Assembly: GCA_015233895.1 (NCBI GenBank)
Contig: JADFXG010000011.1
Location: 37,212 to 101,211 of the forward strand
Source of the DNA: Nitrospirota bacterium
Lineage (GTDB): Bacteria > Nitrospirota > Thermodesulfovibrionia > Thermodesulfovibrionales > Magnetobacteriaceae
Direction: 5' to 3'
DNA: 64,000 nucleotides
A program made the position numbers and the translations under genes. The number at the start of each line of letters is the position of its first letter. Positions within the stretch are counted from its first letter, which is position 1. This document shows positions 5,830 through 48,380 of the stretch, piece after piece. Below the pieces are notes generated by a model. The model had not been told where the DNA came from. It worked only from the letters and a program-made list of their open reading frames with translations, and made no database searches.

Positions 5830-7698
5830 ATGAAGAGAAAAATTTACTTTATCTTATCTGATGCTCTTATCATAGCAGCGTCTCTTTACCTTGCCTTTTA
5901 CATCCGTTTTGATTTCTCCATTGACGTTGTGGATAGATACCTTCAGCTCATACTGTTTTTCCTGCCGATTTTCCTTACCGTAAAAATTTCCACTTTTTAT
6001 ATATTTAGAATCTACAGTATCACATGGCGCTATGTTGGCTTAAACGACTTATGTAAAATAGTGAACTCGTTAATTGCCTCTGAGATGATTCTAATAGGAG
6101 TCATATATTACATGTTCTTGCCGGAGACGGCGCGATTTAATTCACTGTTAGGGGGTGGCATAGTATTTCCGCGCAGTATAGTGGTTATAGACTTGATATT
6201 GTCGTTAATCTTTATGTCTGCCATAAGAATATCCAAACGTCTCTATCATGAGATCCTAAGCCGTAAGCGTAGTAAAGAAGGTAAGAGCACAATAATCATA
6301 GGGGCCGGCAACTCTGCTGAAATGCTTGTAAGAGAGATTTCAAGACAGCTTGTGCCGGAATTTAACGTAATCGGTTTTCTTGATGATGACCCTAATAAAA
6401 TCGGCGCCTATGTTCACAGCATTAAGGTACTGGGTAAAATTGATAAACTTAGAGACTACATATATCAATATAACATTCAGGTGGTCATTATAGCGATAAC
6501 CAATCTTGATTATGGAGCTCTTAAGAGAATATATGAGATGTCAAGGGGCTCAGGAGTAAAAAACATAAAAATCACCCCCATGATGCACGGTGATAATAAC
6601 GTTAATGTGGCGATAAATTCGCTTGAAGATTTAAAAATAGAAGACCTCATAGGACGGCAGGTAATAAAGCTTGATTATGGTCAGATAAAGGATTTTTTGT
6701 CAGGTAACAAGATAGTAGTATTTGGAGCTGGCGGGTCAATCGGCTCAGAGATAGCCAGCCAGTTGTGTGCACTAAGGCCATCGCATCTTGTGCTTTTTGA
6801 CATGGATGAGACTGCCATGTTTAATCTGCAAACCAAACTAAGTAAGCACTATCCTGCACTTAAGCAAAACGTAAGTTACGTGATAGGCAATATAACGGAC
6901 ACATCGAGAGTGGAGGAAATCTTCATTCTCTACCGGCCAGATAAGGTGTTTCATGCAGCAGCTTATAAACATGTCCCTATGATGGAGCACAATCCTACGG
7001 AGGCAATCAAGGTTAACGTTTTGGGCACATACAATATAGCGGAGCTTTCGGAGCGTTATGGAGTGAAAAAGTTCATAATGCTTTCTACCGATAAAGCAGT
7101 AAACCCTTGCGGAATAATGGGCGCTACTAAGCGTGCTGCCGAGGAGTTGTGCAAGGTGGTAGCCGGCAGTACGAGTTTTATATCGGTGCGGTTTGGCAAT
7201 GTGCTGGGAAGCCGGGGGAGTGTGTTGCCTCTCATGCTTGAACAGTTACGTAAAGGGGGGCCTCTTACTGTAACACACAGAGACATGGAGCGCTACTTCA
7301 TGACAATACCAGAGGCTGTATCGCTTGTTTTGCAGGCAAGCGTAATTGGGCAAAGTGGTGACATTATGATTCTTGACATGGGAAAACCTGTCAGGATTCT
7401 TGAGCTTGCAGAGGAGTTAATCAGGCTTCATGGCATGACTCCCTATAAAGACATTGACATAGAGTTCATAGGACTCAGACCTGCTGAGAAACTAAGAGAG
7501 GAGCTGTACACATCCTCAGAGAAAATCTCTAAAACATCGCATGAAAAAATACTTACTATAATGAATGAAGGACGCAGCACAAAGCCGGAAATTGAAGCTA
7601 TGTTGGATCAATTGAGAAAGACGCTACAAAACAACGACCCTCACAAAGATACTGAAATCAGAGATATTCTCAGAAAATACCATATGCTGTCTGATTAA
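5830..7698 (+). CDS. Membrane-anchored polysaccharide biosynthesis protein, CapD/PglF/WbpM-like UDP-sugar 4,6-dehydratase
   Basis: I prefer the start at ATG 5830 (MKRKIYFIL). There are four N-terminal TM helices and two Rossmann motifs (IIGAGNSAEML; VFGAGGSIGSE). AAAYKHVP supplies YxxxK, and TDKAVNP is also present. Confidence 0.85.
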   Translation: MKRKIYFILSDALIIAASLYLAFYIRFDFSIDVVDRYLQLILFFLPIFLTVKISTFYIFRIYSITWRYVGLNDLCKIVNSLIASEMILIGVIYYMFLPETARFNSLLGGGIVFPRSIVVIDLILSLIFMSAIRISKRLYHEILSRKRSKEGKSTIIIGAGNSAEMLVREISRQLVPEFNVIGFLDDDPNKIGAYVHSIKVLGKIDKLRDYIYQYNIQVVIIAITNLDYGALKRIYEMSRGSGVKNIKITPMMHGDNNVNVAINSLEDLKIEDLIGRQVIKLDYGQIKDFLSGNKIVVFGAGGSIGSEIASQLCALRPSHLVLFDMDETAMFNLQTKLSKHYPALKQNVSYVIGNITDTSRVEEIFILYRPDKVFHAAAYKHVPMMEHNPTEAIKVNVLGTYNIAELSERYGVKKFIMLSTDKAVNPCGIMGATKRAAEELCKVVAGSTSFISVRFGNVLGSRGSVLPLMLEQLRKGGPLTVTHRDMERYFMTIPEAVSLVLQASVIGQSGDIMILDMGKPVRILELAEELIRLHGMTPYKDIDIEFIGLRPAEKLREELYTSSEKISKTSHEKILTIMNEGRSTKPEIEAMLDQLRKTLQNNDPHKDTEIRDILRKYHMLSD

Positions 7699-7733
7699 AT
7701 TTTATACGGTTTCTAATTGGTATTATGCGCTTA

Positions 7734-7763
7734 TTGAATTAAACACCGCTCTTTTGCTATAAT
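7734..7763 (+). promoter_or_regulatory. Possible promoter of the NHLP-like gene
   Basis: TTGAAT (7734-7739), an 18-nt spacer, then TATAAT (7758-7763). Confidence 0.35.
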
Positions 7764-7875
7764 ATAAGTAAGATATATTATAGCCTTATCTTCAGGCATA
7801 TATGCTAACGGCCCAAACGGGGTTATTTATCTAATTATAAAACAATACCCCGGCAGTGGAAAGGAGGGACAAGCC

Positions 7876-8220
7876 ATGCTAGGCTATAAGGAATTGGAAA
7901 CCCGCTTTCAGGAAATTTTTCGGATGGCCGTCGACGATATGGATTTCAGGGCTAAGTTTATTCAAAACCCCAGAGAAACATTCAAAGGATTCGGCATCGA
8001 ACTACCCGAGGACGTGAAGGTCGGTATCTTTGAAAACACCAACAAAATGCTTAACTTTGTCATTCCAGCTCATGTTCCCGAAAGACCCTATGCCTACAGA
8101 CACTGGACTAACGAAATGTTTACCGATTTAAGCACGATAGTATTCAGAGAGGAAGCCCCAATGAGATACTGGGAGGAGGTCCTTATGGAAAGCGATGAGG
8201 TACTGAATCCTGTCTCATAA
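7876..8220 (+). CDS. Nitrile-hydratase-leader-peptide (NHLP)-like domain protein, stand-alone
   Basis: FRAKFIQNPRETFKGFGIELPEDVKVGIFENTNKMLNFVIPAHVPE follows the NHLP / NHase-alpha-like pattern (F...l..NP......G..lPe.v.v.v.E.t...l.lvlP). GGAGGG RBS upstream. Confidence 0.55.
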   Translation: MLGYKELETRFQEIFRMAVDDMDFRAKFIQNPRETFKGFGIELPEDVKVGIFENTNKMLNFVIPAHVPERPYAYRHWTNEMFTDLSTIVFREEAPMRYWEEVLMESDEVLNPVS

Positions 8221-8234
8221 CACTATTTAAAACC

Positions 8235-8287
8235 CCTCTTACAGTTTTTTTCGTATATTGGATGCGCGGTAAGAGGTCTTTTTTATT
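8235..8287 (+). terminator. Candidate Rho-independent terminator after the NHLP-like gene
   Basis: CCTCTTAC (8235-8242) pairs with GTAAGAGG (8269-8276), followed by a T-rich tail (TCTTTTTTATTT). The 26-nt loop is unusually large. Confidence 0.45.
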
Positions 8288-8331
8288 TAAGTACAGCCCT
8301 TAGGCAGTCAGAACATACTCAGGTGTACTTT

Positions 8332-8359
8332 GCAGGGGCGAATAATTATTCGCCCCTGC
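8332..8359. repeat. Perfect 28-bp palindrome GCAGGGGCGAATAATTATTCGCCCCTGC
   Basis: Read directly from the sequence. It is followed by TTTT on the + strand. It is intergenic, between the NHLP-like gene and the membrane protein gene. Confidence 0.9.
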
Positions 8360-8476
8360 TTTTGACGGAGCCAACAAAGTTAGGTGATAGAATGCAACTC
8401 GTTATAACAGTATGATTTTTATCATGGATACGGCTTACAGGCAAGTGGTAAGATAAGATAAAAAACAGGAGGACAC

Positions 8477-8893
8477 ATGGATAAGTTTGTAAGGAATTTT
8501 ATAGTGATGAGTATAGTGTATTTATGTGTAGCGGCACTTATGGGAGTGTTGATGCTTAGCAGCCCCAAATTTCTTGAATTTAAGTTTGCACATTCCCACT
8601 TCATGCTTCTTGGATGGGTATCAATGATGATATATGGAGTAGGGTATCATATCTTGCCTAGGTTTTCCGGGCGGCCGTTAAAGAGTGTAAAAATTGGTGA
8701 AATTCAATTTTGGTTAGCCAACATTGGGCTTATCGGCATGGCAGTTTTCTATTCCCCATGTCAGTATGTATCTTCATGTCAGTGGTTTTTGGGACTTGCT
8801 CCTGTGTTTGGTTTTATAGAATTTATTTCAATAGCTCTGTTTTTCTACAATATGCTTGCCACACTTTTAGCAAAAACGCCGGGACAGCCATAA
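8477..8893 (+). CDS. Small 4-TM membrane protein of unknown function
   Basis: AGGAGG RBS and four hydrophobic helices. The histidine-containing motif AHSHFMLLGW...GYHILPRFSG is loosely reminiscent of NnrS / heme-copper-oxidase-subunit-I-like membrane proteins. That similarity is weak. Confidence 0.6.
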   Translation: MDKFVRNFIVMSIVYLCVAALMGVLMLSSPKFLEFKFAHSHFMLLGWVSMMIYGVGYHILPRFSGRPLKSVKIGEIQFWLANIGLIGMAVFYSPCQYVSSCQWFLGLAPVFGFIEFISIALFFYNMLATLLAKTPGQP

Positions 8894-8917
8894 GCAAAAG
8901 ATGTCCTGTACTTCAGT

Positions 8918-8943
8918 AATTTCTCTGGCGCTACAGAGAAATT
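8918..8943 (+). terminator. Hairpin after the membrane protein gene (no clear U-tract)
   Basis: AATTTCTCTG (8918-8927), loop GCGCTA, then CAGAGAAATT (8934-8943). Confidence 0.3.
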
Positions 8944-9087
8944 CTGAGAGTATCACTTAAAAGATAGAAATGTGTTATATTAGTTCGCAGCGAATAACAT
9001 ATAACTTTATAATAATATATATGTTAGTATATGTTAAGATAGACGATAGCTTCAAGAAATAAACGGAATAATAACTGACCCTCTAAA

Positions 9088-12078
9088 ATGCTAAAGAAGT
9101 TTATAACTATTATATTGTTAACATCCATCTTGCCTATATCCATAAGCGGGATTGTCATCTATCATCACTTCAAGGATAGTTTGATGAAATCCCTGGAAAA
9201 TCAATTACGTACAACATCGGCTATCCAGGAATCCAGAATCAGTATACTATTTGACAGATTTTCCGACGATGTTAGGATGATTGCAAACAGACCAAATATG
9301 AAAAAACAATTAGCATTATACGCCAAAAACAGGGATGCAGAATCAAAGAATAATCTGGCAAAAGTACTGAATGAACTGATGGGTACCATCCCGGTATTTC
9401 ACGAAATATCGCTTGTCGGCATAAACGGCGAAGTGCTTTATTCAACTGATAACTCTCGAATTGGAAAACAAATCGATAGTGAACGATTTATGGCAAAAAG
9501 CCATAAAGAGTGCGGAATTATAGATACCATTAAGGGTAAAGATAACAACACCGACATTTGGTTTTCCTGTCCGTTGCTCATGGATGACAATCTGACAGGT
9601 TTTGTAAGTGCTATATTGGATGGGAATTACCTGACCGACATTACGGGCGATTACACGGGGTTAGGAAAAACTGGTGAAACAGTGCTGGCAAAAAGAGACG
9701 AAAACGGCGATGCGTTATTTATAATCCCCCTGCGCAAAAACAAAAACGCAGCCTTTGTTCTTAAAATACCTAAAGACGACACTAACACTCTTATAACTCA
9801 GGCATTGCTTAAAAGACAAAACGTCTATAGCAATTATGTAGATTACACGGGGGCTGAGGTAATAGGTATCACGCGTTATATAGCTCAGGCAGACTGGGGA
9901 GCAGTTGTTAAAATTGACAAGGCCGAGTTTATGGAGCCATTGGTTCGATTAAGAAACTTTTTAATCATAAGTTATATCATGCTAATAGGCTTCATACTAC
10001 TTACTTTAGTATATCTTGTTAAACATATAACCGGGCCGTTAACTCATCTGACAAAAATAGCCACACAAATTTCAGAAGGAGATATCTCCCAAAGGATTGA
10101 AATAAAAGCTGACGGCGAGATTGGGATTTTATCCACGACGTTTAACAATATGCTCGATAGAATCAAGACGATGCATACGTCGATAGAAAATAAATTCACA
10201 GACCTTAATGCTATTATTAATACTTTGCCGGGTATTTTTTACCTTACTGATAAAGAAGGGAAAATCCTTATGCGCAACAATAACTTAATGGAGGTGACGG
10301 GCTATAGCTCTGAGGAGATAAATAATATGTCCGTAGCCGATTTCTTCATCGAGGATGATAAAAACTGCGCAAATAAAATATTTCAGAAGGTAATCGTAAC
10401 CGGCAGGGCAGACCACGAGCTATTATTAGCGACAAAGGACAATAAGCGGATTCCATATTATTTTATTCTCTCGTTAGTCCGGCAAAATGAAAAGGTTGAC
10501 ATAGTATTTATAGGCGTAGATATTTCTGAGCGCGTCCAAATGGAAAACGAACTGGAGGAATTCAGGCAGCACTTGCAAGAACTTGTGGGTCATAAGACTT
10601 TAGAAATAATAACAATTAACGAACAATTGGAACATGAGATAAAAAAACGTATTACAAACGAAAACGAATTAAAAGAAAAAGAAGAGTTACTTCGCCTTAT
10701 TACAGATTCTCTGCCGGTACTGATTGCTTATATAGACAAAGAAACCCGCTACCGATTTGCCAATAAACTCTACGAGGACTGGTTTGGGTACTCAAATGCT
10801 GAGATATTAGGCAAGCGCTCCAGAGAGATAGTAGGGCAAGACTATTACGAGTCCATAGTAGATAATCTGATAGCTGCGTTATCAGGACAGATGATGCAAT
10901 TTGACAGATCCGTGAGGCTAAGAAACGGAACACTGAAGGTTATTGCGGTAAAGTATATCCCTCACTTCGATGCAAAAAATGGAAATGTTAACGGTATCTT
11001 TGTTATGGCACACGACATCACTGAACTGAAGAATACCGAACTGGCGCTTAGAGAAAGTGAAGAGCGTTTTCGCAGGATATTTGAGGACAGCCCAATTGGA
11101 ATAGCCATAACGGACAGCAACGACTATTTTATTAAGGTCAACAATACAATGTGCCAGATGCTGGGATATACTGAGGACGAATTTAAAACGCTCTCATATC
11201 ATGAATTAACTCACAGGGAATATCTCGACGAGCATAATGAACTTGTAAGTAAATTGAAAAAAGCCATTATCCCAGCATATAAAACAGAGAAATACTACGT
11301 TACGAAAAATGGAGAGGTAATATGGGTAAACGTTATTGCTAATTTGATAAGGGATGAGAAGGGCGCTGTTGTGTATGGGATCAAGATGGTAGAAAATATT
11401 ACGCATCGCAAGGAAATGGAGAAGAAAATTACCTCATATACGGAACAACTGGAGTCATTGGTTCACCAACGAACACTGGTATTGCTGGATAGCCTCGAAA
11501 AACTTCGCTCCCACACTAACGCTATAATACAAGCCATGTGCACTGCCGTAGAGGCCAGAGACCCATACACAGCAGGACATCAACTCAGGGTAAGCAAATT
11601 GTCCTGCGCCATAGCAGAGGAAATGGGACTTAGCGATGAACAGATACAAGGTGTGTTGTTGTCATCCTCAATACACGACCTGGGTAAGATATATGTGCCC
11701 TCTGAGATACTCAGCAGGCCGGGCAAGTTGAAGACATCAGAGTTTAATCTTATCAAAGAGCATTCGCAAATCGGTTATGACATTTTAAAAGGCATAGATT
11801 TTTCTTATCCGGTTGCTCAGATAGTGTTGCAGCACCATGAACGAATGGACGGTTCAGGCTATCCATTTGGACTTAAGGGTGACGAAATTCTGTTAGAGGC
11901 AAGGATAATCTGCGTTTCGGATGTGGTTGAGGCTATGGCTAACCACAGGCCTTATCGTGCCGCTCTGGGAGTAGATAAGGCGATGGAGGAGATAGCAAAA
12001 AGTAGTGGTTCTTTATATGACAGTGATGTTGTTTCTGCCTGTGTCTCTGTGTTTAAGAATGGCTTTAATTTTACGTAA
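9088..12078 (+). CDS. Sensor c-di-GMP phosphodiesterase: periplasmic Cache-like domain, HAMP, three PAS domains, HD-GYP
   Basis: Two TM segments flank a periplasmic region of about 270 aa. HAMP is ITGPLTHLTKIATQISEGDISQRI...GILSTTFNNMLDRI. PAS S-box-like repeats are separated by coiled coils. The C-terminus has HQLRVS...HDLGK...HHERMDGSGYP (HD-GYP). Confidence 0.85.
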   Translation: MLKKFITIILLTSILPISISGIVIYHHFKDSLMKSLENQLRTTSAIQESRISILFDRFSDDVRMIANRPNMKKQLALYAKNRDAESKNNLAKVLNELMGTIPVFHEISLVGINGEVLYSTDNSRIGKQIDSERFMAKSHKECGIIDTIKGKDNNTDIWFSCPLLMDDNLTGFVSAILDGNYLTDITGDYTGLGKTGETVLAKRDENGDALFIIPLRKNKNAAFVLKIPKDDTNTLITQALLKRQNVYSNYVDYTGAEVIGITRYIAQADWGAVVKIDKAEFMEPLVRLRNFLIISYIMLIGFILLTLVYLVKHITGPLTHLTKIATQISEGDISQRIEIKADGEIGILSTTFNNMLDRIKTMHTSIENKFTDLNAIINTLPGIFYLTDKEGKILMRNNNLMEVTGYSSEEINNMSVADFFIEDDKNCANKIFQKVIVTGRADHELLLATKDNKRIPYYFILSLVRQNEKVDIVFIGVDISERVQMENELEEFRQHLQELVGHKTLEIITINEQLEHEIKKRITNENELKEKEELLRLITDSLPVLIAYIDKETRYRFANKLYEDWFGYSNAEILGKRSREIVGQDYYESIVDNLIAALSGQMMQFDRSVRLRNGTLKVIAVKYIPHFDAKNGNVNGIFVMAHDITELKNTELALRESEERFRRIFEDSPIGIAITDSNDYFIKVNNTMCQMLGYTEDEFKTLSYHELTHREYLDEHNELVSKLKKAIIPAYKTEKYYVTKNGEVIWVNVIANLIRDEKGAVVYGIKMVENITHRKEMEKKITSYTEQLESLVHQRTLVLLDSLEKLRSHTNAIIQAMCTAVEARDPYTAGHQLRVSKLSCAIAEEMGLSDEQIQGVLLSSSIHDLGKIYVPSEILSRPGKLKTSEFNLIKEHSQIGYDILKGIDFSYPVAQIVLQHHERMDGSGYPFGLKGDEILLEARIICVSDVVEAMANHRPYRAALGVDKAMEEIAKSSGSLYDSDVVSACVSVFKNGFNFT

Positions 12079-12138
12079 ACGATCCTATAACATGAAAAAA
12101 TACAAAACATTAATTCTGCATATTTTCTGCAATCATAA

Positions 12139-12167
12139 TTGACGATTTGTTAAGATGTTGATATAAT
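12139..12167 (+). promoter_or_regulatory. Candidate sigma70-type promoter of the DUF262 operon
   Basis: TTGACG (12139-12144), a 17-nt spacer, then TATAAT (12162-12167), about 50 nt upstream of the ATG at 12220. Confidence 0.5.
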
Positions 12168-12219
12168 TCTATATACAGGATGTGACACTAAGTCTTTGTG
12201 ATTTTTAAGGGGTGCTGTT

Positions 12220-13356
12220 ATGAAAGATGACGATAACGACAGGTTGATAGCAGATGATGGCAGTACCGGCATAGAGTGTGAGGATACTGGGGATACTCAT
12301 AAAGCTGAACCATACAATCCTGCCAAAGTTCGGGTCTCGACCAAGCCAACGATTTTGGCGGCTATAAGAGACAGACTTATGCATAATGAAATAGACTTAA
12401 AACCTGGTTTTCAGAGAGAATTTGTTTGGAATGAAACCGCTCAGAGCAGACTTATCGAATCTATGATGATAAAGATACCTATTCCTGCTTTTTATATGGA
12501 CGCAACCGATGAGGACAGATGGTTGGTTGTAGATGGACTGCAGCGTCTAAGCACAATAAAAAGGTTTGTAATAGATAAGGATTTGAAATTAACAAAACTT
12601 GAATTTTTGAAGGAACATGAAAAAAAAACCTTTGATGAATTGCCGCATAATTTCCAAAGACGAATAAATGAAACGGAGTTTACAGTTTTTTTAATAGAAA
12701 AGGGAACGCCGGGTAACGTAAAATTTAACATCTTTAAAAGAATCAATACAGGTGGGGAACCACTGTCTCCTCAGGAAATCCGCCACGCACTTAACCAGGG
12801 AAAACCAGCGGATGTTTTGGCAGAGATGGCAAAGTATGAAGAGTTTAAAAAGGCTACCAATAAAAGCATTAAAGAGAAACGTATGGCAGACAGAGAGTGT
12901 GTTTTGCGTTTTATTTCATTTTATAGAAATTATCCCGAAAGCTATGTTTTTAAAGATTTTGAAAGTTTTGATTATTTTTTGAATCAATGCATGAGTGAGA
13001 TTAAAACATTGGATGACGATGTTATAACAGATATAAGAGAGAAATTCAAAAAAGTCATGGATGTAGCAAGTGAAATATTTGGAAAAGATGCTTTTAGAAA
13101 AAGGTATGATTTAAAACACGGTTTGAATCCTATAAATAAAGCGTTGTTTGAAACATGGTCAGTAAATTTAGCCAGACTTAATGACAACGAATTAGACCAG
13201 ATTAAATCACGAGCACAACAGTTAAAAGAAATATTTATGAAAAAAATGAATAAAGCGGAATTTGGAAATCTTTTTGCTTCCGGTACAGGAGATCCAACGA
13301 GGATAAAGGATAGGTTTAAGGAAATAGATGACATAATAAAGGAAGTGATAAAATGA
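12220..13356 (+). CDS. DUF262 (ParB/GmrSD N-terminal-like) domain protein without an HNH/DUF1524 domain
   Basis: IDLKPGFQREFVWNETAQSRLIESMM...IPAFYM...WLVVDGLQRLSTI (DGQQR-type motif) and FNIFKRINTGGEPLSPQEIRHAL are DUF262 hallmarks. The C-terminal half is helical and I do not recognise it. Confidence 0.75.
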   Translation: MKDDDNDRLIADDGSTGIECEDTGDTHKAEPYNPAKVRVSTKPTILAAIRDRLMHNEIDLKPGFQREFVWNETAQSRLIESMMIKIPIPAFYMDATDEDRWLVVDGLQRLSTIKRFVIDKDLKLTKLEFLKEHEKKTFDELPHNFQRRINETEFTVFLIEKGTPGNVKFNIFKRINTGGEPLSPQEIRHALNQGKPADVLAEMAKYEEFKKATNKSIKEKRMADRECVLRFISFYRNYPESYVFKDFESFDYFLNQCMSEIKTLDDDVITDIREKFKKVMDVASEIFGKDAFRKRYDLKHGLNPINKALFETWSVNLARLNDNELDQIKSRAQQLKEIFMKKMNKAEFGNLFASGTGDPTRIKDRFKEIDDIIKEVIK

Positions 13357-14545
13357 TAAAATCTTTAGAAATACATAATTTTAACTGCTTTAAAGAGCAG
13401 AAGATAGAATTTAGAAATCTTACTTTGCTAACCGGCTTAAACGGTATGGGGAAATCAACCGTTTTACAGGCTATGTTGTTATTACGGCAGTCTTATATGA
13501 TGGGGTTGCAACAACCTTTGGCCGATACTGAGAGAGGTGGGTTATCATTAAATGGTGGTTTGGTAAAGATAGGCCAGGCAAAGGATGCCATGTATGAGGG
13601 TGCTGAGGATGATAGAATAGGCTTTGAATTAAAATACACAGGAGGTGGAGATAAAAGAGTTGTTTGGTTTTTTGAGTATGACCGGAATTCCGACGTCTTG
13701 CAGCTTGTCAAAGATAGTGGGACAGTATATCCGGATGGACGGGAGAGGTTATTTCATAATAATTTTCAGTATTTACAAGCGGAGAGAATAGGGCCAAGGA
13801 TAACGTACGAAATGTCGGATTACATGGTAAGAAAATTAAAATGGCTTGGTACAAGTGGGGAATTTACAGCACATTTCCTTGCTATTCATGGTGATAAATT
13901 AGATGTTATTGAACCGTTAAGATATAAGTCATCATTGCACACTGGTGTGACTAGGAAATTACGGAGCGTGGAAATTTCAAAAGCAACAAAATTAAAGTTT
14001 CAGGTTGAGTCATGGCTAAGTGAAATCAGGCCTGGAACACGTTTGGAAACGATTTCCGCCCCTGATATGGATGAGGTAGCATATAGGTTTTCCTTTGAAA
14101 CACAACGGTATGTTACAAATTCCTACAGGCCGACAAATGTCGGGTTTGGAATATCATATACATTACCAATTTTAGTAGCAATATTATCATCACACCCGGT
14201 GCGCTATTACTGTTAGAAAATCCTGAGGCACATCTTCATCCACGTGGACAGTTTAAATTGGCATATCTTATAGCTCTTGCTGCAAGTGCAGGTATTCAGG
14301 TAATCGTTGAGACGCATAGTGACCATATTCTTAACGCTATAAGGGTTGCTGTATGCCAAAAGGTTATTGACCCGGAAGACGTTAAAATACATTTCTTTCA
14401 ACAAAGTGAAGATATGTCAGATCTTGCCGCAGAGGTGATTTCTCCCAAATTAGACAAAAACGGTAGAATCAGTGACTGGCCCCGAGATTTTTTTGATGAG
14501 TGGGATAAGGCTCTTGAGATATTAATAAATGAAGGGGATATTTAA
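13353..14545 (+). pseudogene. AAA/ABC-type ATPase with C-terminal DUF3696, split by a 1-nt frameshift (ORFs 13353..14216 and 14258..14545)
   Basis: The N-terminus is IHNFNCFKEQKIEFRNLTLLTGLNGMGKST (Walker A). Reading 14195 onward in the -1 frame gives PGALLLLENPEAHLHPRGQFKLAYLIALAASAGIQVIVETHSDHIL...DWPRDFFDEW (Walker B/D-loop plus DUF3696). Restoring one C in the CCC run at 14195-14197 gives the continuous ...AILSSHPGALLLLENPEAHLHP. An ATGA overlap couples it to the upstream gene. Confidence 0.7.
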
Positions 14546-14547
14546 CA

Positions 14548-15498
14548 TTGGCTCTTGATTTAGTTTTTAATGAGTTATTATTCACACCGTTAGCTAAAAG
14601 TGTTTATGAAGCAAAAGAAAGGATTAAGACTTTTGTTGATTCTATTGTTTCTATTTCAAAATTGGTTCCAACATGTCGAGTTAAAACATTGAGGGTTCAT
14701 AACAATTTCCGTGATGAGTCTGTTGCAGATAACTACAATATTTCTAAATGGTTAAGTGATTTATCAGTAGATATGGAAAGGAAACGTTACTTGAAAACTC
14801 TTTCGACTAAAATTCCGTTTACAGTGGGCTTGGATGAATATTTGATAGATAAAGTAACTTTGACAGACTGTATATTTGATAAGGCGCCAGCATTAGGACT
14901 TTCTATAGCCCATCTTTTGGATACTATTGCTGTTAGTTTTGCTTCTGATGGTATTTGGAACTCTCCGTTTTTAAAAATATCTTGTGATACCTTGTATAAT
15001 GATGAGATAGTGCCTGAAAACATAGAGGTTCGTAATGTCTCCAATTCCACCCATGTGAGCGAGCATAAACAATGGCTTGAGAAACGTTGTGTTACAAAAC
15101 CTAAAAACGGAATTGATATATGGAATAAAAGAGGAGAACTTTATCCTTTTTTGAGTTTTTGTAATAGAACTGAAGCTCAGTTAAAATCTATAGATTCCGG
15201 CAATCCGGTTATTCACCAGATTCATGAAAAATTAAATACAATAAACAAATATTTTGAAAAACATAGAAGTTTTATTAATCTGAAATTATTTAAATATCGC
15301 GTAACTACAGACAGCCCTACAACGCTTAAAAAGTATTGGCGAGAAAGAACCTTTTTCTGTCCAGATGGAGAAAACCGTCTTTTTAGTTTGCATGTCAGAT
15401 TAACACCGTTTGAAATGCGCTTGTATTTTGGGTGGGATAAGGACACTGTAATTATTGGCCATATTGGTGAGCACTTGCCAATTGTAAGTGAAAATTAA
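14548..15498 (+). CDS. Hypothetical protein, third gene of the DUF262/ATPase module
   Basis: TTG start 2 nt after the ATPase stop, with a GAAGGGG RBS. The ORF is 316 aa with no motif I recognise. The C-terminus is RLYFGWDKDTVIIGHIGEHLP. Confidence 0.55.
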   Translation: MALDLVFNELLFTPLAKSVYEAKERIKTFVDSIVSISKLVPTCRVKTLRVHNNFRDESVADNYNISKWLSDLSVDMERKRYLKTLSTKIPFTVGLDEYLIDKVTLTDCIFDKAPALGLSIAHLLDTIAVSFASDGIWNSPFLKISCDTLYNDEIVPENIEVRNVSNSTHVSEHKQWLEKRCVTKPKNGIDIWNKRGELYPFLSFCNRTEAQLKSIDSGNPVIHQIHEKLNTINKYFEKHRSFINLKLFKYRVTTDSPTTLKKYWRERTFFCPDGENRLFSLHVRLTPFEMRLYFGWDKDTVIIGHIGEHLPIVSEN

Positions 15499-15521
15499 TT
15501 CCACAATCTCAAAGTAAAACA

Positions 15522-16442
15522 ATGAAGAAATTGTCACTCTTACCCAAAAGACTTTCCCCGGGGGATAAGATCGGTGTTGTTTGTCCGTCAAACGAAATTG
15601 CTGGCCAAAAACAAACAGAGGAGCTACGAAGGGGTATTAAGTTTTTTGAAAACCTTGGATTTAAAGTTGAAAGAGGTAAGAATCTCTGTTCAGCAAATCC
15701 ACAAGACAGAGCAAATGACATAAACGAGTTTTTCTTAAACCCTGATATTAAAGCAATATTTTCGGCTCAGGGTGGCGATACATCTGAAAGGGTACTAAAG
15801 TTTATTGACTGGAGCGCAGTAAGTGAAAATCCCAAAATCTTTATGGGATTAAGCGATGTTACGGTATTTTTAAACGCAATATACACAAAAACCTCACTTA
15901 TCCCATTTCACGGCGGCGATGTCAGATACCACTACGGTAAAAACCCTACTGAATACGATAAGACAGAGTTTACAGACCGCCTTATCAACGGCTGTACCGG
16001 CAAAATAAATCCCTCAGGTGACAGAAAAACTATCCGAGGTGGCAAGGGTTCAGGGAACCTTCTGGGCGGTAACCTCAGATGTCTCCTTAAACTTGTTGAT
16101 ACACCGTTTTGGCCTGACTTTACCGGAGCAATCCTTATGCTTGAAGCCCTGACAATGGATGAATTACGCTGTGTTGAGTATCTTAAAATTTTGCGACAAA
16201 AAGGAGTCTTTGATAAAATCTCCGGAGTGATTGTTGGCTTTGTCTATTCGATGGAGATTGAAAAGCCTGATGCGCCGCAGATGGAGGATATTTTGTTAAT
16301 GGAAACCAGAGACTATAATTTCCCAATTCTAAAGGTAAGGGACTTTGGCCACGGCTGCCCCAACACGGTTTTACCCATAGGCGCCCAGATAGAACTTAAT
16401 GCCGATAATCTAACCTATAAGATAGTAAGCAATGTCATTTAG
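15522..16442 (+). CDS. LD-carboxypeptidase / MccF-like S66 peptidase
   Basis: LSPGDKIGVVCPS at the N-terminus, the nucleophile motif FMGLSDVTVFLNAI, and the C-terminal DFGHGCPNTVLPIG motif. Confidence 0.8.
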   Translation: MKKLSLLPKRLSPGDKIGVVCPSNEIAGQKQTEELRRGIKFFENLGFKVERGKNLCSANPQDRANDINEFFLNPDIKAIFSAQGGDTSERVLKFIDWSAVSENPKIFMGLSDVTVFLNAIYTKTSLIPFHGGDVRYHYGKNPTEYDKTEFTDRLINGCTGKINPSGDRKTIRGGKGSGNLLGGNLRCLLKLVDTPFWPDFTGAILMLEALTMDELRCVEYLKILRQKGVFDKISGVIVGFVYSMEIEKPDAPQMEDILLMETRDYNFPILKVRDFGHGCPNTVLPIGAQIELNADNLTYKIVSNVI

Positions 16443-18433: not shown

Positions 18434-21400
18434 TCACTCCTGCCATATTCCCTGCCAGTTGTTATCAGGGAGGAATTCTTTGAGGTGTTCTGTTGTTTTA
18501 AGGTATTTAGCGCTGGGGCCGTCGTGCGGGTCAATGGAAAGGCAGTGTTTAAAGCTTTCAGCGGCCTCATCCCAATTTCTGTTATAGTAGTGTTGTTGAG
18601 CCATATTGAAGATGTTTAACAGTGTTTTTTTATTTTCATCAAGCGTACAGAAGTTTGATATCAGTTCATGGAACTCGTTAGGGCGCTTTTTTAGTTGTGA
18701 TGCAAACTGATTAAGCCGTTCATTTATAATCCGCTCGTTTGTTTTCATTTCAGCGGTTATAGCAGTAGTATCAACGCTGATACCAGATTTATTCAAAAGT
18801 GTTTTCAGATGCTCTGAAAGCTCTGTTGCGATTTTGTCAGCCTCAGTTGCATACGATATTCTTTTATTAATTGATAGCAGTCTTTTCTCAAGTACATCCA
18901 CTCTGCTATAGAGTGAATCTGACAGAGCACGCTCACCCATGTCTTTTAATATTTTTATATAAGGCACAGCCTTTATAATCTCTTTATACAATTCGGAAAG
19001 CCTTTTCTCTGTGAATGATACGTTAGAGGTGGATTGAGGCTCCGGAATCGGGATGCTTAAAGTTACGGCATGCCCTTCAGTTTTAAGGAGAAGCGTTTTT
19101 ATCTCTGCTTCAATTTCTGTAATGTTGAGAATATCCTTTGATTTCATATACTGTACAGCAACGGTGGAAAGTTCGGAAAACATGGTCTTTATTTCAGTTA
19201 ACAGTTCCGAGCCGGGTAAATCTTTTTCGGAGAAATAGTCATGATAACCGATGACCTTTTCAGGGCGCATTCTGCTTAAAGAATTCAAAATAAGCGCAGG
19301 GATTGGCTTGTCTTTCCAAAAGTTAAGAAAACGGTCTTTCCTCCAGCCTATGACCTCATATATCTTAACAGATTGTGCAGCGTGAGCTCTTTCAAATGCA
19401 CCGAGGTTACGTGCCTCGATGTGGTCCTTTACGAGGTCATAGGTACTCTCTGACATCATGATGCACGTATCAAAGATCTTATTAGCTGGTTCAAGCTCCT
19501 CAGCAAATGTTGCGGCATCACCCATGGCTGTGTACTGCATATGATTGTACGAGCCCATAATGGCTGCTGAGATTACGCCCGTGTTGATTCCCATTCGTGC
19601 TGTTATCATAACCCCATACTCTATGGCTATCATACGCTGGATGACTTTTAATTCCTCCTGGCTATACAGTGCACTGAGGCAACACTTCAGGGCCTGATCA
19701 TTATCGTCAAGAGGAATACCAAAGTCAGCCTTAATAGCATCTCCCTCATACTTGTCAACGTATCCGTCATAAGACATTATGATGTTGCTCATTGGCGTAA
19801 GATAGATGTTAAGAATATCAGCAAGTTCCCTGGATGTCACACCCTCAGATATAGTTGTAAAGCCGGATACGTCGGATGAAAACATTGTAGCAAGTTTTTT
19901 CTCACCTCCACGGTTAAACTTTTCAGGATGCTTCTCTAGCATCTTAAGCACTTCAGGAGATACCATGGCAGAGAACATTTTACGAATTTTTTGCCGTTCC
20001 ATACTCTCCCTTATGTACTTATATAAAATTCCTGAGATAAAGGCAAGGGCAATTGCAGATACTGCCTGAAATGTAGGCAGAAGCAGCCCCTGTTTTGTAA
20101 AGAAATACCAATCAAGCATTGCGTACACTGCGGTAACTAATAAAGTTACAGGACCGCTCCTAATCGGAGTAAACAACATAACTACGTTAAGAACAATAAC
20201 TACCAAAATAAAATTCAGAGAATATTTTAGCCACACCGGACAGTCTGTCAAAAACTGGCCTGTCATAATTGTGTTAAGCACATTGGGCATAAGGTCAAGC
20301 ATGGGATGATGTCTAAGGTATGGAGTAGGATTCAGTGCGGTCAAAGCGGTAGCGGTCAAGCCATAAAACACTATCTTATCTTTCAGATAAAGAGGTGATA
20401 TAACTGTGCGTTTACTGTCTATATCAATATCCGGCATAACAAAAAACAAAGGGCGTACCCTATAAACGTCGTTTCTTTTAATGTGGTAGGCAATCAAGTT
20501 GTAAGATTCCGTTAAGTTCATTGATTTAAGGTCATTTTCGGTAAGAGACAAGTCTGTGATAACATCTTTAAGTGGAGGGACTACTTTGTTTTCCACATGC
20601 TTTTTAACTATATAATTGTTAAACTTAATCTGCTTTGCCATCGAAAGCCAGAAATTATCTGTAGGGTCAAGTCCCATGGATGTCAGAGCCTCTGCTTCTG
20701 ACATCCCGTGGTCAACTATGTTTTGTTCAATATAAAAGGCTGCAAAAGCACGGGCGAAAATTTTATCAGCTGCTTCTTTAGATATATAAGGCAACTCAGA
20801 AAGTTTTAGAGGCACATATTTTTCTATATCCTCAGCTACAGGAATCTTTTTGATTTCATCCTTAGTAATCTGATACGCTACCAGTTCGGATATCATGCTA
20901 AAGGGCAGACGCGCAAATGTATCATTATAGCTGCCCGCCCAGTTAATGTTCATGCTGCCTGTGTTGTCAACAGGAATCTTTACGAAGGAGTTTTTTCCTT
21001 TTAGTTTTATATATCGACTGTCACCTGTGTAAATATTCTCTGTATGAAGCAGCTTGCGGACAAGGTTAAGCGGAAGTGAACCGTATAGCATGTTTTGGTA
21101 TATAGCCATAAGAGGATACTTTCTAACCACACCGTCAGGGGAAAGGTGGATTTGGTTAAATCCTGCGCAAGCCATGCTTTTTAAGATACTCTCTTTGGGT
21201 ATGATTATGTTTGTAGCTACAGGGAAATTCCATTTAGAGCCTTCTACCGCAGTTTTTGCTGAAAGAAGTTCTAAGCTGTGTTTTTCTATAGTTGTGGCGG
21301 ATGTCTTTAGTGTGCCGGTAACACTATGTTTGCCATCCGGTTCCGGTATTTTAAAATCAACATCTGCACAAGCATTGCCATTTTTCTTTAAACTGTCACT

Positions 21401-21838
21401 CAGATACTCCTCATAGTCAGGAATTGTGGAACCAATGTCCTTTTTCCCATATCCGGCAAGAATTCTATTTTTGACACTCTCTAAAGAACCCCTGTCTATG
21501 GCGTTATTGCTGCCTTGTGAAAAATCCATGTTAACAAAAACAATATCCGCAACACCGTATTCAGTCAGAAAATTCACGATGTCACCGTGTATGAACCACG
21601 GCCATGGCCACCGTCCGGTAACATCTATGTCTTTGTCGTCAATGTCAAGAGTTATGATGTTGGGGTAAATCTTAATTTTAGGCCTTAACTGAAATTTTAC
21701 ATTTAAAATCCTGTTTTCTATGATGTCAAATGATCCCAGAGCGATAAAAAGTGTTAAAAACAGGGAAACGGAAAGTAAGAGAGCCGCCATAGGAACAAAT
21801 CGTTTGTACCTTTGAGTTGCTAATAAAAGAAATTTCAT
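18434..21838 (-). CDS. CHASE2-domain class III adenylate/guanylate cyclase with TPR-like tail (copy 2)
   Basis: I prefer the start MKFLLLATQ at 21838, 1 nt after the upstream stop. It has an N-terminal TM segment, the CHASE2 motif DDKDIDVTGRWPWPW, and 3 TM helices. The cyclase core is ATMFSSDVSGFTTISEG...YEGDAIKADFGIP...GINTG. The C-terminus has a TPR-like ...W.EA...F...L...P.DGP motif. Confidence 0.85.
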   Translation of the reverse strand: MKFLLLATQRYKRFVPMAALLLSVSLFLTLFIALGSFDIIENRILNVKFQLRPKIKIYPNIITLDIDDKDIDVTGRWPWPWFIHGDIVNFLTEYGVADIVFVNMDFSQGSNNAIDRGSLESVKNRILAGYGKKDIGSTIPDYEEYLSDSLKKNGNACADVDFKIPEPDGKHSVTGTLKTSATTIEKHSLELLSAKTAVEGSKWNFPVATNIIIPKESILKSMACAGFNQIHLSPDGVVRKYPLMAIYQNMLYGSLPLNLVRKLLHTENIYTGDSRYIKLKGKNSFVKIPVDNTGSMNINWAGSYNDTFARLPFSMISELVAYQITKDEIKKIPVAEDIEKYVPLKLSELPYISKEAADKIFARAFAAFYIEQNIVDHGMSEAEALTSMGLDPTDNFWLSMAKQIKFNNYIVKKHVENKVVPPLKDVITDLSLTENDLKSMNLTESYNLIAYHIKRNDVYRVRPLFFVMPDIDIDSKRTVISPLYLKDKIVFYGLTATALTALNPTPYLRHHPMLDLMPNVLNTIMTGQFLTDCPVWLKYSLNFILVVIVLNVVMLFTPIRSGPVTLLVTAVYAMLDWYFFTKQGLLLPTFQAVSAIALAFISGILYKYIRESMERQKIRKMFSAMVSPEVLKMLEKHPEKFNRGGEKKLATMFSSDVSGFTTISEGVTSRELADILNIYLTPMSNIIMSYDGYVDKYEGDAIKADFGIPLDDNDQALKCCLSALYSQEELKVIQRMIAIEYGVMITARMGINTGVISAAIMGSYNHMQYTAMGDAATFAEELEPANKIFDTCIMMSESTYDLVKDHIEARNLGAFERAHAAQSVKIYEVIGWRKDRFLNFWKDKPIPALILNSLSRMRPEKVIGYHDYFSEKDLPGSELLTEIKTMFSELSTVAVQYMKSKDILNITEIEAEIKTLLLKTEGHAVTLSIPIPEPQSTSNVSFTEKRLSELYKEIIKAVPYIKILKDMGERALSDSLYSRVDVLEKRLLSINKRISYATEADKIATELSEHLKTLLNKSGISVDTTAITAEMKTNERIINERLNQFASQLKKRPNEFHELISNFCTLDENKKTLLNIFNMAQQHYYNRNWDEAAESFKHCLSIDPHDGPSAKYLKTTEHLKEFLPDNNWQGIWQE

Positions 21839-21839
21839 A

Positions 21840-24800
21840 TCATTTCCTTGTCTGGATAAACTCACCTTGCCACGATGGCGGAGGAGGAGATTCCTTATAA
21901 AACTCTATTCTTTTAATTAAAGACTCAGCCGGAGGGTCTCCCGGCAGTACTGCCGCCGAAAGTTTAAACATATCGAGAGCCTCATCCCATTTCCGCTGAA
22001 AATACAACTGCAACCCTGCCTCGTAGTGCGTTTTTGACTTTAATACCGCATCAGAAGGACTGCCAAGATGTGCAGCCATTTCATGATATACCTCTGGCTT
22101 AAGTTGAAGCTTTGCATAGAATTGTTCTACGACAGTCCTGAACTTTGCCTGATAATTAAGTAAAGATACATTGAGTTTTCTTATTTGTGCCTCTGATGAG
22201 CCTTTAACTTGTTGTATATATCTTTCCATTTCGTTTATACAGCCAATGATAACTTCACTTTCAGGATTTTCTTTTAAAAGAAAACGATTTTGAAATAAAC
22301 TGGCTTTTGCTAACACGTTGTTAGACTCTTCTGATAGCTCATTCAGAGTGTAATCGGTGTGTTTTATCGTATGAGCACTCTCGGAAATCAAATTTTTCAT
22401 GCTGCTTAGTTCTGTAACAATGTCGGAAAGTACATCATTTTTGGGCAGAAATGGTTTAAACTCACGGCCAAAAACATTTGCCATACTATGTCTGAGCTGT
22501 CTCATAGCCATAACTATACCAAGAAATTCAATCCTCCACTCAGTTATTAAAAGCTCTGAGACAAGAGGTATGGTATTGTCAAAAAAGGTGAAAATCTCAA
22601 CAGCTGATTCAAATCCTGTGTCCTTAGCACGTTTTTTCCACACATCCCTGTAACAGAAAAACTTCTCGGCAGAGCACTTTAACCAGTTATACTTTACAAA
22701 TTGCGGAACTGGTTTGGATTTATGAAAATCTCTGTAAGCCTCCGTAACCCACCCAAGGACCTCATATATTGCAGTAGGTTTTGTTTTTCCTTTAAGCAGC
22801 AGCTTATCCAACATCCTCAGGTGTACGTAGTCTTTTATTTCAGGAACGGTGTCTTTTCCTGTCAGAGCATTTCTTGCGTTATAGATAAAATTAGCAGCCA
22901 TAAACCGTGCGGATACGTTAACTGAATCCCCCATGACGGTGTACTGGAATTTTCCTTCAGATCCCATATTACCCGCTGAAACGTATCCAAAATTAAACCC
23001 CATCGAGACAGACACTGGCCGCCCATAGCGCATGGTAACAAATCTTTTAAAAGCCTCTATGTCAAGATTCTGTTCGATAGTGGCAAAGGCACACTTTACA
23101 GCGCTCTGCGGGTCATCCAGAGGGACTCCGAAGTCAGCCATGATGACGTGTCCTTCGTACTTATCTATATAACCGTCATAGCTGGTAATGATCTCGCTGT
23201 TGGGAGACAAATATATGCTCAGTATGGCCGGCAGTTCATCCGGAGACACATCTTTAACAATATCCGACATGCCTTGTATAAGAGAAAAAAATGTTGTCAC
23301 GGCTTTTCTTTCACCTGTCAGAGCGAATTTGTCAGGATTGTTTTCCATCGTCTTTAAAATAGATGGCGAAACCATCTTGGAAAACATTAGTCTCATTAGT
23401 TTTCTTTCAAAATATGCCTCCACATACCTCACAAGCGCTAAAGCCAGAAATGTAATTGCAATAGCCCCCACTGGCACCACCCAATTAAACCAGTACCCTT
23501 TTGTAACCCACAATCTGTACGTAACAATGATATAGCTAAGGGCTAAGACAGCTGAGGCTGGAAAAGCCATCTGAAGGACTAAAAAACTGCAAAGCAAGCC
23601 GGTTATAATGGAAAGAAGTATGGTGATAGCATAAGTATAAGTCTCAGGAACGTGCCACAGGAAATTACCTGTCAGTATGGTGTTTATGGCATTTAGGTGA
23701 TAAGAGACCATAGGTGAGCTTTTTTCAAAAGGGGTTGGATTAAGATCAATAGTGCCGGTGCCGGTAAGACCTGCTATGAAAAGTTTGTTGTTAAGGTCAA
23801 CCGGAGAAAAAGGTGATAAAACTCCATTATTTTTTACTTGTAGCAACGGTGGGAAGTAGTACGGATAAATGTCTCTTAATCGTCCTTTTTTTGCAAAAGA
23901 ATGAATATTTCTAAATATTTCAAAGACAAGTTGGGCATCTGTATTTTGTGGATAGACTTTATTGAACTCTTCAAAGGTAATGGAGGGCTTCTGAGTAATA
24001 ACTTTTTCAATATTGTATGCAACCCTGATTTCATTTAAGTCTTTCTTAAGGCTGCTGCCGTTATTGTCATAGAGCTTCATAGTTTCAAAGACAACATTGT
24101 CGTCAACTCCTGAATCAATCAGTTTAGATATAAACCAGGCATTTGCGGTTTTTTCAGAAATTTGTGAACTTTCCGCGCCAGTGACAAGGCTTTCCTCGTC
24201 AATAGCTGTTTTAATTGTTGTTTTAAGAGCCTTAAAACCCTCTGCTGTCAGTTCATAGTTTGATTTCCTCGCCTCTTCTTTTGCCCGTATAACGGCATAG
24301 TAGTATGATATGTGTCTAAAGGGCACGTGCAGAAATGTGTCATTAGATTTACCTGCCCAGTTGACAAGCATTTGAAAGTGCTTATCAATGGGGATTTCAA
24401 TATCAGAGCGGGTTTGAGCATTTAGCTTTTTAGCGTTTTTTAAAGTTAAAGATTCTCCCTGAGAAATTCTCATTTCATTTAGTTTAAAGTCAAGGACGTT
24501 GGAGAGCATTGAAAGCACCAGAGGATAAATCTCAGAGTTATCATAGTATCTAAGTAGTGGGTAGTTTCTGACCACTGAGTCTTCATCAAATCCTGGTTGT
24601 GCAAAGCCAAGGCCAGTGGAGGCTGTGATAAATTCAGGAGATGGCGGTGTGATGTTTATGTCTTTAAGCAGTGAGCTATTATAAGCAGTAGAAGTTGGCA
24701 AAAACGTTTTCTTTAATAACCCCATTGAGGCCTTCTCTGAGTCTGTCATCTCAGAGTTTAAGCGCTTAGTTTGCCCAAGAACTTTATTTATATCATTAGT

Positions 24801-43685: not shown

Positions 43686-43762
43686 AGCTCCTCCTCGGCA
43701 TAACACAAAACCCACAGCTACATCAACACGCAATCACCATACGCTTAATTAAAGATAAACTA

Positions 43763-48291: not shown

Positions 48292-48380
48292 AACCTCTTC
48301 AAAGTCCCGCAACAAACGCAACATACTACGCAGACCCCCTCCATCTTTTTGGCACAATACGCTGATATATTTAGAAAGAG

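Follow-up and report, generated by a model that had tools for sequence, protein, structure and literature searches.

A Type I Menshen (NsnABC) cassette with a frameshifted nsnB in a Nitrospirota MAG, probably a recently inactivated relic

The window, i.e. the whole stretch of 64,000 nucleotides from a Nitrospirota MAG that was analysed, contains three genes with a promoter in front of them, enclosed by a pair of 8-bp direct repeats. The features are, from left to right:

12109-12116, + strand: left 8-bp direct repeat ATTAATTC, where homology to the intergenic region of a sister genome stops
12139-12167, + strand: sigma-70-type promoter TTGACG-17-TATAAT, 11/12, with a TG-extended -10
12220-13356, + strand: nsnA, predicted sensor, 378 aa (Pfam GmrSD_N 3.1e-24; PADLOC NsnA 3.2e-132)
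13353-14545, + strand: nsnB pseudogene, ABC ATPase with DUF3696 tail, 397 aa if repaired (PADLOC NsnB 2e-119 after repair)
14193-14197, + strand: 1-nt deletion in nsnB, between the signature motif and Walker B, placed by alignment to intact homologues
14548-15498, + strand: nsnC, predicted effector, 316 aa, TTG start (PADLOC NsnC 2.5e-73, profile positions 1-304 of 305)
15494-15501, + strand: right 8-bp direct repeat ATTAATTC, overlapping the stop codon of nsnC; immediately beyond it the sequence is again homologous to the sister genome

The promoter had been proposed in an earlier note on this DNA, and it is indeed the best-scoring site between 11.8 and 15.8 kb. Promoter-like sites in this region number 14, against 13.7 by shuffle, and the one exceptional site among them is that at 12139 (11/12); in the 64-kb window, 10 sites of at least 11/12 were observed vs. 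2.6 expected. The promoter is located 53 nt from the first ATG, that of nsnA, and as it lies within the cassette it will have been acquired together with it. The same note described three translationally coupled genes, and this holds in part. The nsnA and nsnB genes overlap by ATGA at 13353-13356, and the stop codon of nsnB (TAA, 14543-14545) is followed by a 2-nt gap and then by the TTG start of nsnC at 14548. However, the second gene is not one open reading frame, and since its frame-0 translation ends 332 nt upstream of the nsnC start, the translational coupling from nsnB to nsnC is broken.

The first gene was described as a DUF262 protein without the usual DUF1524/HNH half, and GmrSD_N/DUF262 is its sole Pfam family, with the motif VDGLQRL present and DUF1524/HNH absent. 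Its match covers positions 20-384 of the 385 in the PADLOC profile, and its ParB-DUF262 NTPase domain carries the motifs QREFVW (65-70), DGLQR (105-109) and FKRIN (172-176), while the C-terminal half is predicted to be helical and of the DNA-binding type (ParBDB). Only an acidic loop of ~55 aa precedes DUF262, with no added N-terminal domain, which makes this NsnA a Type I protein. The repaired product of the second gene matches AAA_15 (7.6e-25), AAA_21 (6.6e-23) and DUF3696 (1.4e-16) in Pfam, as anticipated, and next to the expected ENPEAHLHP it contains a Walker A motif GLNGMGKS (28-35), a GFG signature (264-266), a Walker B motif LLLLEN (285-290; 14204-14221) and the His-loop ETHS (320-323). 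The third gene, for which 316 aa and no recognisable motif had been noted, has that length and no Pfam family; its homologues start at the same residue as the TTG-initiated product, and the closest of them is 38% identical. NCBIfam was uninformative for both NsnA and NsnC.

In a PADLOC-DB profile search, the three products (NsnB after repair of the frameshift) give full-length matches to the profiles of NsnA, NsnB and NsnC, which places all three genes, on profile evidence, in the families that make up Menshen (NsnABC). The suggestion of a three-gene anti-phage defence operon is thereby supported. The system had also been called unnamed, with an assignment by PADLOC to a known system given as the observation that would speak against this; such an assignment was found, so the claim of novelty is refuted. 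Li et al. (NAR 2025, PMC12065111) examined the domains of the Menshen proteins in silico and in detail, those of the effector among them, and catalogued 1,997 loci in 27 phyla. The defining motifs from that study are all found here: QRxxxW, DGxQR and FxxxN in NsnA, and in NsnB a Walker B motif with 'EN' not 'DE' and a GxG not SGG signature. Type I is the commonest layout, and the present operon is an ordinary example of it.

That the genes instead constitute another system with DUF262 and an ATPase (PD-T4-2, HEC-03 or PDC-M55), or a truly unnamed one, is extremely improbable. NsnA does match PD-T4-2_A (1.8e-44), NsnB matches HEC-03B (1.1e-36) and PDC-M55A (2e-28), and NsnC has neither a Pfam family nor a close relative; however, these next-best matches are far weaker, with the Nsn profiles better by 80-90 orders of magnitude at full-length coverage, all PADLOC matches of the third gene are to NsnC profiles, 13 different ones, and gene order, sizes and motif variants agree with the description of Menshen throughout. 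PD-T4-2 was rejected in particular, with 1.8e-44 for PD-T4-2_A against 3.2e-132 for NsnA and the PD-T4-2 partner profile absent from the top matches of genes 2 and 3. A type IV restriction system of the GmrSD/SspE kind was likewise rejected, as the 378-aa protein has GmrSD_N alone and its match to SspE (0.0022) extends over 20 residues.

The expected co-occurrence of the three genes in other genomes is observed: the order of a DUF262 gene, an AAA_15/DUF3696 gene and an NsnC homologue recurs in Anabaena subtropica, in an ENA metagenome contig and in the Methylobacterium plasmid pMaqPC3, in all of which NsnB is intact (372-381 aa). The Menshen system of Solibacillus silvestris StLB046 shares with the present locus the order and sizes of the three genes, an NsnA of ParB-DUF262 plus ParBDB without extra N-terminal sensor domain, an NsnB ABC ATPase with 'EN' Walker B, GxG signature and DUF3696 tail, and a two-domain NsnC whose C-terminal part is BECR/YafQ-like with an H-R-H triad. 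The differences are the frameshift in nsnB, the divergent NsnC, and the setting, as the present locus belongs to a Nitrospirota MAG and lies alone between signalling and housekeeping genes. As cited in PMC12065111 from Millman et al. 2022, Menshen protects against the phages T2, T4, T6 and Fado, and the system with demonstrated protection is, in that citation, the one from S. silvestris only.

Likeness to other defence systems is confined to parts. GmrSD, SspE and BrxU share the N-terminal DUF262 NTPase, including its three motifs, and the helical DNA-binding domain that follows it in the middle of the protein, this part being in those enzymes the sensor of modified phage DNA. In Menshen, however, the predicted sensor NsnA has no fused DUF1524/HNH; the nuclease role is assigned to another protein, a predicted RNase, and an ABC ATPase comes between the two. 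NsnB matches the profiles of AriA, PtuA and GajA from PARIS, Septu and Gabija with 1e-27 to 1e-15, though only partially, over the P-loop and C-terminal ATPase lobes. In contrast to PARIS (AriA-AriB), Septu (PtuA-PtuB) and Gabija, the predicted effector of Menshen is a BECR RNase and not a Toprim or HNH nuclease, and Menshen includes a ParB-like protein as its dedicated sensor.

The third gene had been named as the candidate effector, and both its PADLOC assignment and its predicted structure agree with this. NsnC consists of an N-terminal alpha/beta domain (~1-180) with an invariant FNEL motif and a C-terminal domain (~185-316) that in the model resembles RelE, YafQ and YoeB (BECR) and is a predicted RNase; the AF2 models have a pLDDT of 89.6 for NsnC and 93.7 for the C-terminal domain. 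When the whole chain was compared with the PDB in Foldseek, no match reached E<=1e-3; Vps29 took the top ranks at low probability, and only YoeB, HP0892 and ParE had meaningful probabilities. The C-terminal domain was therefore modelled alone. Of its 30 top matches, 28 are toxins of the RelE/YoeB/YafQ/HigB/ParE type, with TM scores to the target of 0.5-0.67 and probabilities up to 0.84, although the E-values, at least 0.06, are not significant. A profile search of PDB sequences with the C-terminal alignment returned a chance match only (SARS-CoV-2 Orf7a, E=0.76). Across 21 homologues, H282 and R291 are invariant and H309 nearly so (>=90%), which is the conserved triad that accompanies the modelled BECR-like fold; in the S. 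silvestris NsnC, the H-R-H triad sits where YafQ has H-D-H (PMC12065111). The archetype NsnC combines an N-terminal inactive PIN-like (inPIN) fold with a C-terminal PB-BECR1 domain carrying the H-R-H triad (PMC12065111). The N-terminal domain of the present protein gives a confident alpha/beta model, the D-E-D-D set is unconserved among the 21 homologues, and no PIN structures appeared in the whole-chain Foldseek search. NsnC thus shares with the type II toxins RelE, YoeB, YafQ and HigB the predicted C-terminal fold and the conserved His/Arg/His residues, but differs from them in its fusion to a 180-aa N-terminal domain, the lack of an antitoxin gene and the predicted control by an ATPase. No relative of NsnC was found in the phage collection.

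How an intact system of this kind might work follows a bioinformatic model of Menshen (PMC12065111), and the three steps given here are drawn from Li et al. 2025 and from analogy to GmrSD/SspE, Gabija, Septu and PARIS. NsnA, with its ParB-like DUF262 NTPase and DNA-binding C-terminal half, would detect invading phage DNA and would then signal to NsnB, an ABC ATPase that may oligomerise and bind NsnC; Li et al. predict a GajA-like NsnB tetramer with the effector bound as in Septu and PARIS (PMC12065111). The ATP cycle of NsnB would activate or release NsnC, and the putative BECR (RelE/YafQ-like) RNase, with its His-Arg-His active site, would cleave RNA and so keep the phage from replicating, whether by acting on its transcripts or by abortive infection.

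The copy in this MAG departs from the scheme in its second gene. Intact homologues have SS-P/K-PG at the site where one nucleotide is missing here, and after the deletion frame 0 runs into a TAG stop codon at 14214-14216, and the rest of the protein (PGALLLLENPE...) is encoded in a different frame. Without repair, the gene codes for a truncated product of 287 aa (13353-14216) and, downstream, for an open reading frame of 95 aa from a TTG at 14258, which starts 3' of Walker B; these fragments match positions 1-236 and 257-343 of the NsnB profile. The earlier note had merely hinted at the frameshift, by speaking of a 'repaired version'. The NCBI MAG and two Logan assemblies (SRR31558125 and SRR31558128, runs that may be from the same or related samples as the MAG) carry exactly the same deletion, and the 287-aa truncation is common to all contigs of P0023 (7/7). 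In four NCBI MAGs, NsnB is without a protein accession, and the accessions of NsnA and NsnC are consecutive.

MAGs are consensus assemblies, the Logan runs may come from the same or related samples, and nsnA and nsnC are perfectly intact, all of which would suit an assembly or sequencing artefact in an organism that has an intact nsnB and a functional Menshen. I consider this very unlikely, as the indel is common to the MAG and two separately assembled runs with gap-free alignments over 6-21 kb, recurs in each of the 7 contigs encoding the 287-aa product, and is mirrored by the missing NsnB accession in four different MAGs. Moreover, its CACCCGG context has no long homopolymer of the type that causes systematic indel errors. 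Among 5.8 billion proteins, no intact NsnB relative above 53% identity, let alone a near-identical one, was found. The same deletion in every public copy, together with the lack of an intact close relative, suggests that the locus is probably inactive.

Alternatively, the locus could be active despite the frameshift, through ribosomal or transcriptional slippage, through a split NsnB, or through NsnA and NsnC without NsnB. The promoter, nsnA and nsnC are all intact, both nsnB fragments still match the NsnB profile, and the required frame change is -1, the commonest programmed type. However, there is no X XXY YYZ heptamer or long homopolymer between the last upstream stop of the target frame and the frame-0 stop, and programmed frameshifting is rejected on that account. 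A split NsnB is rejected because Walker B (14204-14221) is in neither fragment, as the downstream open reading frame can begin only at TTG 14258, and intact homologues are single proteins of 369-407 aa. With regard to NsnA and NsnC alone, the third gene is nearly always found 3' of the NsnA-NsnB pair across Menshen loci (PMC12065111), which suggests that all three are needed. Activity by any of these routes is accordingly very improbable. I infer a loss of function instead: nsnB is broken by one missing base and the locus is probably a dead copy, as the deletion would leave an NsnB product that lacks Walker B, the His-loop and the DUF3696 tail and would uncouple the translation of nsnC, and these losses make a recently inactivated relic most likely. 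The full-length, intact state of nsnA and nsnC could mean that inactivation is very recent or that the locus retains some function. The frameshift predicts that the present copy gives no phage protection.

The boundaries of the cassette are evident from a sister MAG (88% nt identity) in which the site is empty, with 170 nt there vs. 3.4 kb in the window. The sister contig aligns up to the left repeat and again after the right copy, so that the cassette corresponds to an indel of 3,385 bp with the ATTAATTC repeats at its ends, and the empty site carries ATTAATTT once (5383-5390 of that contig, L007). Taken together, I estimate a probability of about 0.85 that 12109-15501 is a horizontally acquired, self-promoted Type I Menshen cassette whose frameshift in nsnB has left a recently inactivated relic.

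The system is already named, experimentally demonstrated and analysed at the domain level, and its three genes are all picked up by standard defence-finder profiles, which leaves little discovery value in its identity. New are the 1-nt deletion common to every public copy and the empty site in the sister MAG. The locus offers a clear case of decay of a defence system, by single-base inactivation of the ATPase with sensor and effector intact, and pipelines that depend on called proteins may miss such a locus or score it incomplete. As a natural NsnA+ NsnB- NsnC+ genotype it could also inform whether NsnB is the activator or the restrainer of the RNase effector. If NsnC were expressed and tolerated without functional NsnB, NsnB would be a required activator of NsnC, and antitoxin-like restraint would be ruled out, unlike in PARIS, where AriA sequesters AriB. 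It is unlikely, though worth mentioning, that the locus is such a natural knock-out with a tolerated effector or that NsnA and NsnC retain a two-component function, and, separately, that the 8-bp repeats and the clean empty site mark a recombinase-free route for the movement of minimal defence cassettes.

The unrelated signalling and housekeeping flanks noted earlier are indeed found around the cassette, whose site lies between a PAS/HD-GYP gene and an S66 peptidase gene, with the right repeat ending 20 nt before the start of the latter at 15522. A search of the 64-kb window for a defence island or a mobile element found neither an integrase, a transposase or a tRNA nor any further defence gene, Rfam found no family, and the cassette stands alone, outside any defence island. 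Of the known Menshen loci, ~28% adjoin R-M or BREX systems (PMC12065111). When the occupied site is compared with the empty one, a defence cassette of 3.4 kb that brings its own promoter is seen to have inserted singly between core genes. Its AT-richness, earlier judged by eye, is real but modest, with a GC content of 36.0% against 40.4% for the window, at the 5.8th percentile of windows of the same size.

The three-gene module at 12139-15498, which the earlier note had proposed to be an unnamed anti-phage system, is composed of the following elements:

12139-12167, plus strand: promoter TTGACG-17-TATAAT with a TG-extended -10 (motif scoring)
12220-13356, plus strand: ORF A (nsnA), 378 aa (ORF call)
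13353 to the stop codon at 14543-14545, plus strand: ORF B (nsnB), interrupted, its start in an ATGA overlap with ORF A
14548-15498, plus strand: ORF C (nsnC), 316 aa, TTG-initiated, after a 2-nt gap behind the ORF B stop

The promoter, ORF A, the ATGA overlap, the 2-nt gap and ORF C are found on the plus strand as had been described. The promoter is intergenic, with the first start codon 53 nt downstream; promoter-like sites across the region are not enriched in total (14 vs. 13.7 by chance), and the window holds more sites that match at 11/12 or better than expected (10 vs. 2.6).

The module does have a name. In Pfam, the ORF A product matches GmrSD_N/DUF262 and no other family, the repaired ORF B product matches AAA_15, AAA_21 and DUF3696, and ORF C matches no family. 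It is the PADLOC-DB profiles that settle the assignment to Menshen (NsnABC): the NsnA profile matches the ORF A product with 3.2e-132 (positions 20-384 of 385), the NsnB profile the repaired ORF B product with 2e-119, and the NsnC profile the ORF C product with 2.5e-73 (positions 1-304 of 305), with 12 more NsnC profiles matching. The next-best candidates, PD-T4-2 (PD-T4-2_A, 1.8e-44) and HEC-03 (HEC-03B, 1.1e-36), were rejected as at least 80 orders of magnitude weaker than the Nsn profiles. The idea of a defence module whose effector is the third gene was right in kind. The locus also matches the diagnostic details of NsnA and NsnB in the Menshen description (PMC12065111): NsnA carries QREFVW, DGLQR and FKRIN, and NsnB has the Walker A motif GLNGMGKS, a GFG signature replacing SGG, the Walker B motif LLLLEN ('EN' for 'DE'), the ETHS His-loop and a DUF3696 tail. 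As the sequence ahead of DUF262 in NsnA is no more than an acidic loop of about 55 residues, the locus belongs to Type I, the majority layout, which is presumed ancestral. A published catalogue lists 1,997 Menshen loci from 27 phyla (PMC12065111). The Menshen system of Solibacillus silvestris protects against T2, T4, T6 and Fado (PMC12065111, citing Millman et al. 2022). The module is thus a known system of the most common type, very probably inactivated in this copy.

The lesion lies in ORF B, for which the reported position and stop hold but not the continuity, as frame 0 runs into a TAG at 14214-14216 and the remainder of NsnB (PGALLLLENPEAHLHP...) sits in another frame. When the repaired NsnB is aligned to two homologues that are accompanied by NsnC relatives (52% and 51% identity), the alignment is unbroken across the frameshift and exactly one residue is absent where the homologues read SS-P/K-PG; judged from this alignment, 1 nt has been deleted at about 14193-14197, after the signature motif and ahead of Walker B. 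The deletion recurs and is not a one-off assembly error: the NCBI MAG and the Logan assemblies SRR31558128 and SRR31558125 are gap-free and identical across it, the 287-aa truncated product is present on 7 contigs, and four NCBI MAGs have consecutive accessions for NsnA and NsnC, so that no NsnB protein was called there. Moreover, no intact NsnB above 53% identity was found in a collection of 5.8 billion proteins. A functional split NsnB was rejected as well. The two fragments still correspond to positions 1-236 and 257-343 of the NsnB profile, and Walker B lies in neither, because the downstream ORF can start only at the TTG at 14258. As there is also no slippery heptamer or homopolymer at the break that would favour programmed recoding, the NsnB ATPase is very probably dead. 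The coupling of nsnB to nsnC is lost too, since ribosomes now terminate 332 nt ahead of nsnC, and the expected phenotype of this copy is no defence.

Window position 13385 is a C (NsnB codon 11, AAC, Asn), where all three public copies of the locus and the truncated protein have a G (AAG, Lys), the residue of homologous NsnBs too; this base is the sole difference over the 21-kb overlap with the public copies. A near-identical copy of the window is found on contig JADFXN010000004.1 (Nitrospirota MAG GCA_015233555.1), with one base different and otherwise 100% identity, window position 1 corresponding to about 34096.

The gene order DUF262, AAA_15/DUF3696, NsnC does recur, in three unrelated places. 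In Anabaena subtropica and in an ENA metagenome contig, NsnB is one protein (372 and 381 aa, respectively), and on plasmid pMaqPC3 of Methylobacterium aquaticum its gene is one 1,116-nt CDS. The metagenomic and plasmid loci, both with a related NsnC, have mobile elements next to them: IS1 and the reverse transcriptase of a group II intron in the former (7325-11941), and a Mu-type transposase/ATPase on one side and an IS66 transposase on the other in the latter (88-2366 and 7065-8345). Such neighbours are missing at the window copy.

A search of the 5.8-billion-protein collection gives 21 homologues of NsnC, the closest of them 38% identical. In their alignment, an N-terminal FNEL motif is invariant, as are F269, F279, H282, R291, G304 and G307 in the C-terminal part, and H309 is nearly so; this includes a His-Arg-His set that resembles the triad of the archetype PB-BECR1 domain (Li et al. 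2025, PMC12065111). The AlphaFold2 models, which are confident (pLDDT 89.6 for the full length, 93.7 for residues 185-316), gave no statistically significant Foldseek match in the PDB. RelE/YoeB/YafQ/HigB/ParE toxins make up 28 of the 30 top matches of the C-terminal domain (TM normalised to target 0.5-0.67, probability up to 0.84); the full chain gave meaningful matches only to these same families, and a PIN-like N-terminal fold was not confirmed. From these results, the effector is taken to be a predicted BECR-fold RNase. Following Li et al. 2025 (PMC12065111), NsnA would sense phage DNA via its DUF262 NTPase and ParBDB domains, the ATP cycle of the NsnB ABC ATPase, a predicted GajA-like tetramer binding NsnC as in Septu and PARIS, would transduce the signal, and the RNase of NsnC would cleave phage or host RNA. 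The literature searched contains no biochemical demonstration of any of these steps in a Menshen system.

Still of interest are the clean ends of the cassette, each marked by a repeat, and a genotype that is naturally null for NsnB and keeps the effector intact. In the sister MAG Nitrospirae bacterium nDJH6bin1 (about 88% nucleotide identity), 170 nt separate the upstream PAS/HD-GYP gene from the downstream S66 LD-carboxypeptidase gene, compared with 3.4 kb in the window. Homology stops at ATTAATTC (12109-12116) and restarts past a second ATTAATTC (15494-15501), which overlaps the nsnC stop codon, and the empty site carries a single ATTAATTT (5383-5390 of the sister sequence); this junction alignment and the empty site define the cassette as a 3,385-bp indel with an 8-bp direct repeat at both ends. 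The difference may have arisen by insertion, accompanied by target duplication or involving microhomology, or by a precise deletion in the sister lineage. The cassette brings its own promoter and has a lower GC content, and the 64-kb window contains no recombinase, tRNA or other defence genes. The AT-richness that had been noted by eye is real (GC 36.0% vs. 40.4% for the window), but reaches only the 5.8th percentile of equal-sized windows. The lowest GC (about 33%) is found in 3.4-kb windows starting at 55250-55700, within a hybrid histidine kinase gene (52656-56195) and extending into a GGDEF gene (56258-58576), so that GC alone cannot single out the cassette.

At the same intergenic site, a GC-richer segment of 127 nt behind the PAS/HD-GYP gene of the sister MAG (5231-5357) is missing from the window (at about 12079-12084), a second, independent indel. 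Downstream, the peptidase start follows the nsnC stop after only 23 nt, which contain no terminator (15498-15522). The cassette displaced the native upstream region of the peptidase, still present in the sister MAG, and transcription of the peptidase gene may now depend on read-through from the Menshen promoter or on a promoter-like site within nsnC (15159 or 15400).

Elsewhere in the window, two tandem, overlapping paralogues of about 1,150 aa (18434-21865 and 21840-25313, minus strand) encode CHASE2-sensor adenylate/guanylate cyclases. There are also two giant paralogues of about 1,475 aa with BNR/Asp-box and beta-propeller repeats (37803-42224 and 43918-48357, minus strand). Along the direction of transcription, each of their genes is followed by an ORF of about 480 aa (36148-37584 and 42270-43733), and they are possibly a duplicated cell-surface module.
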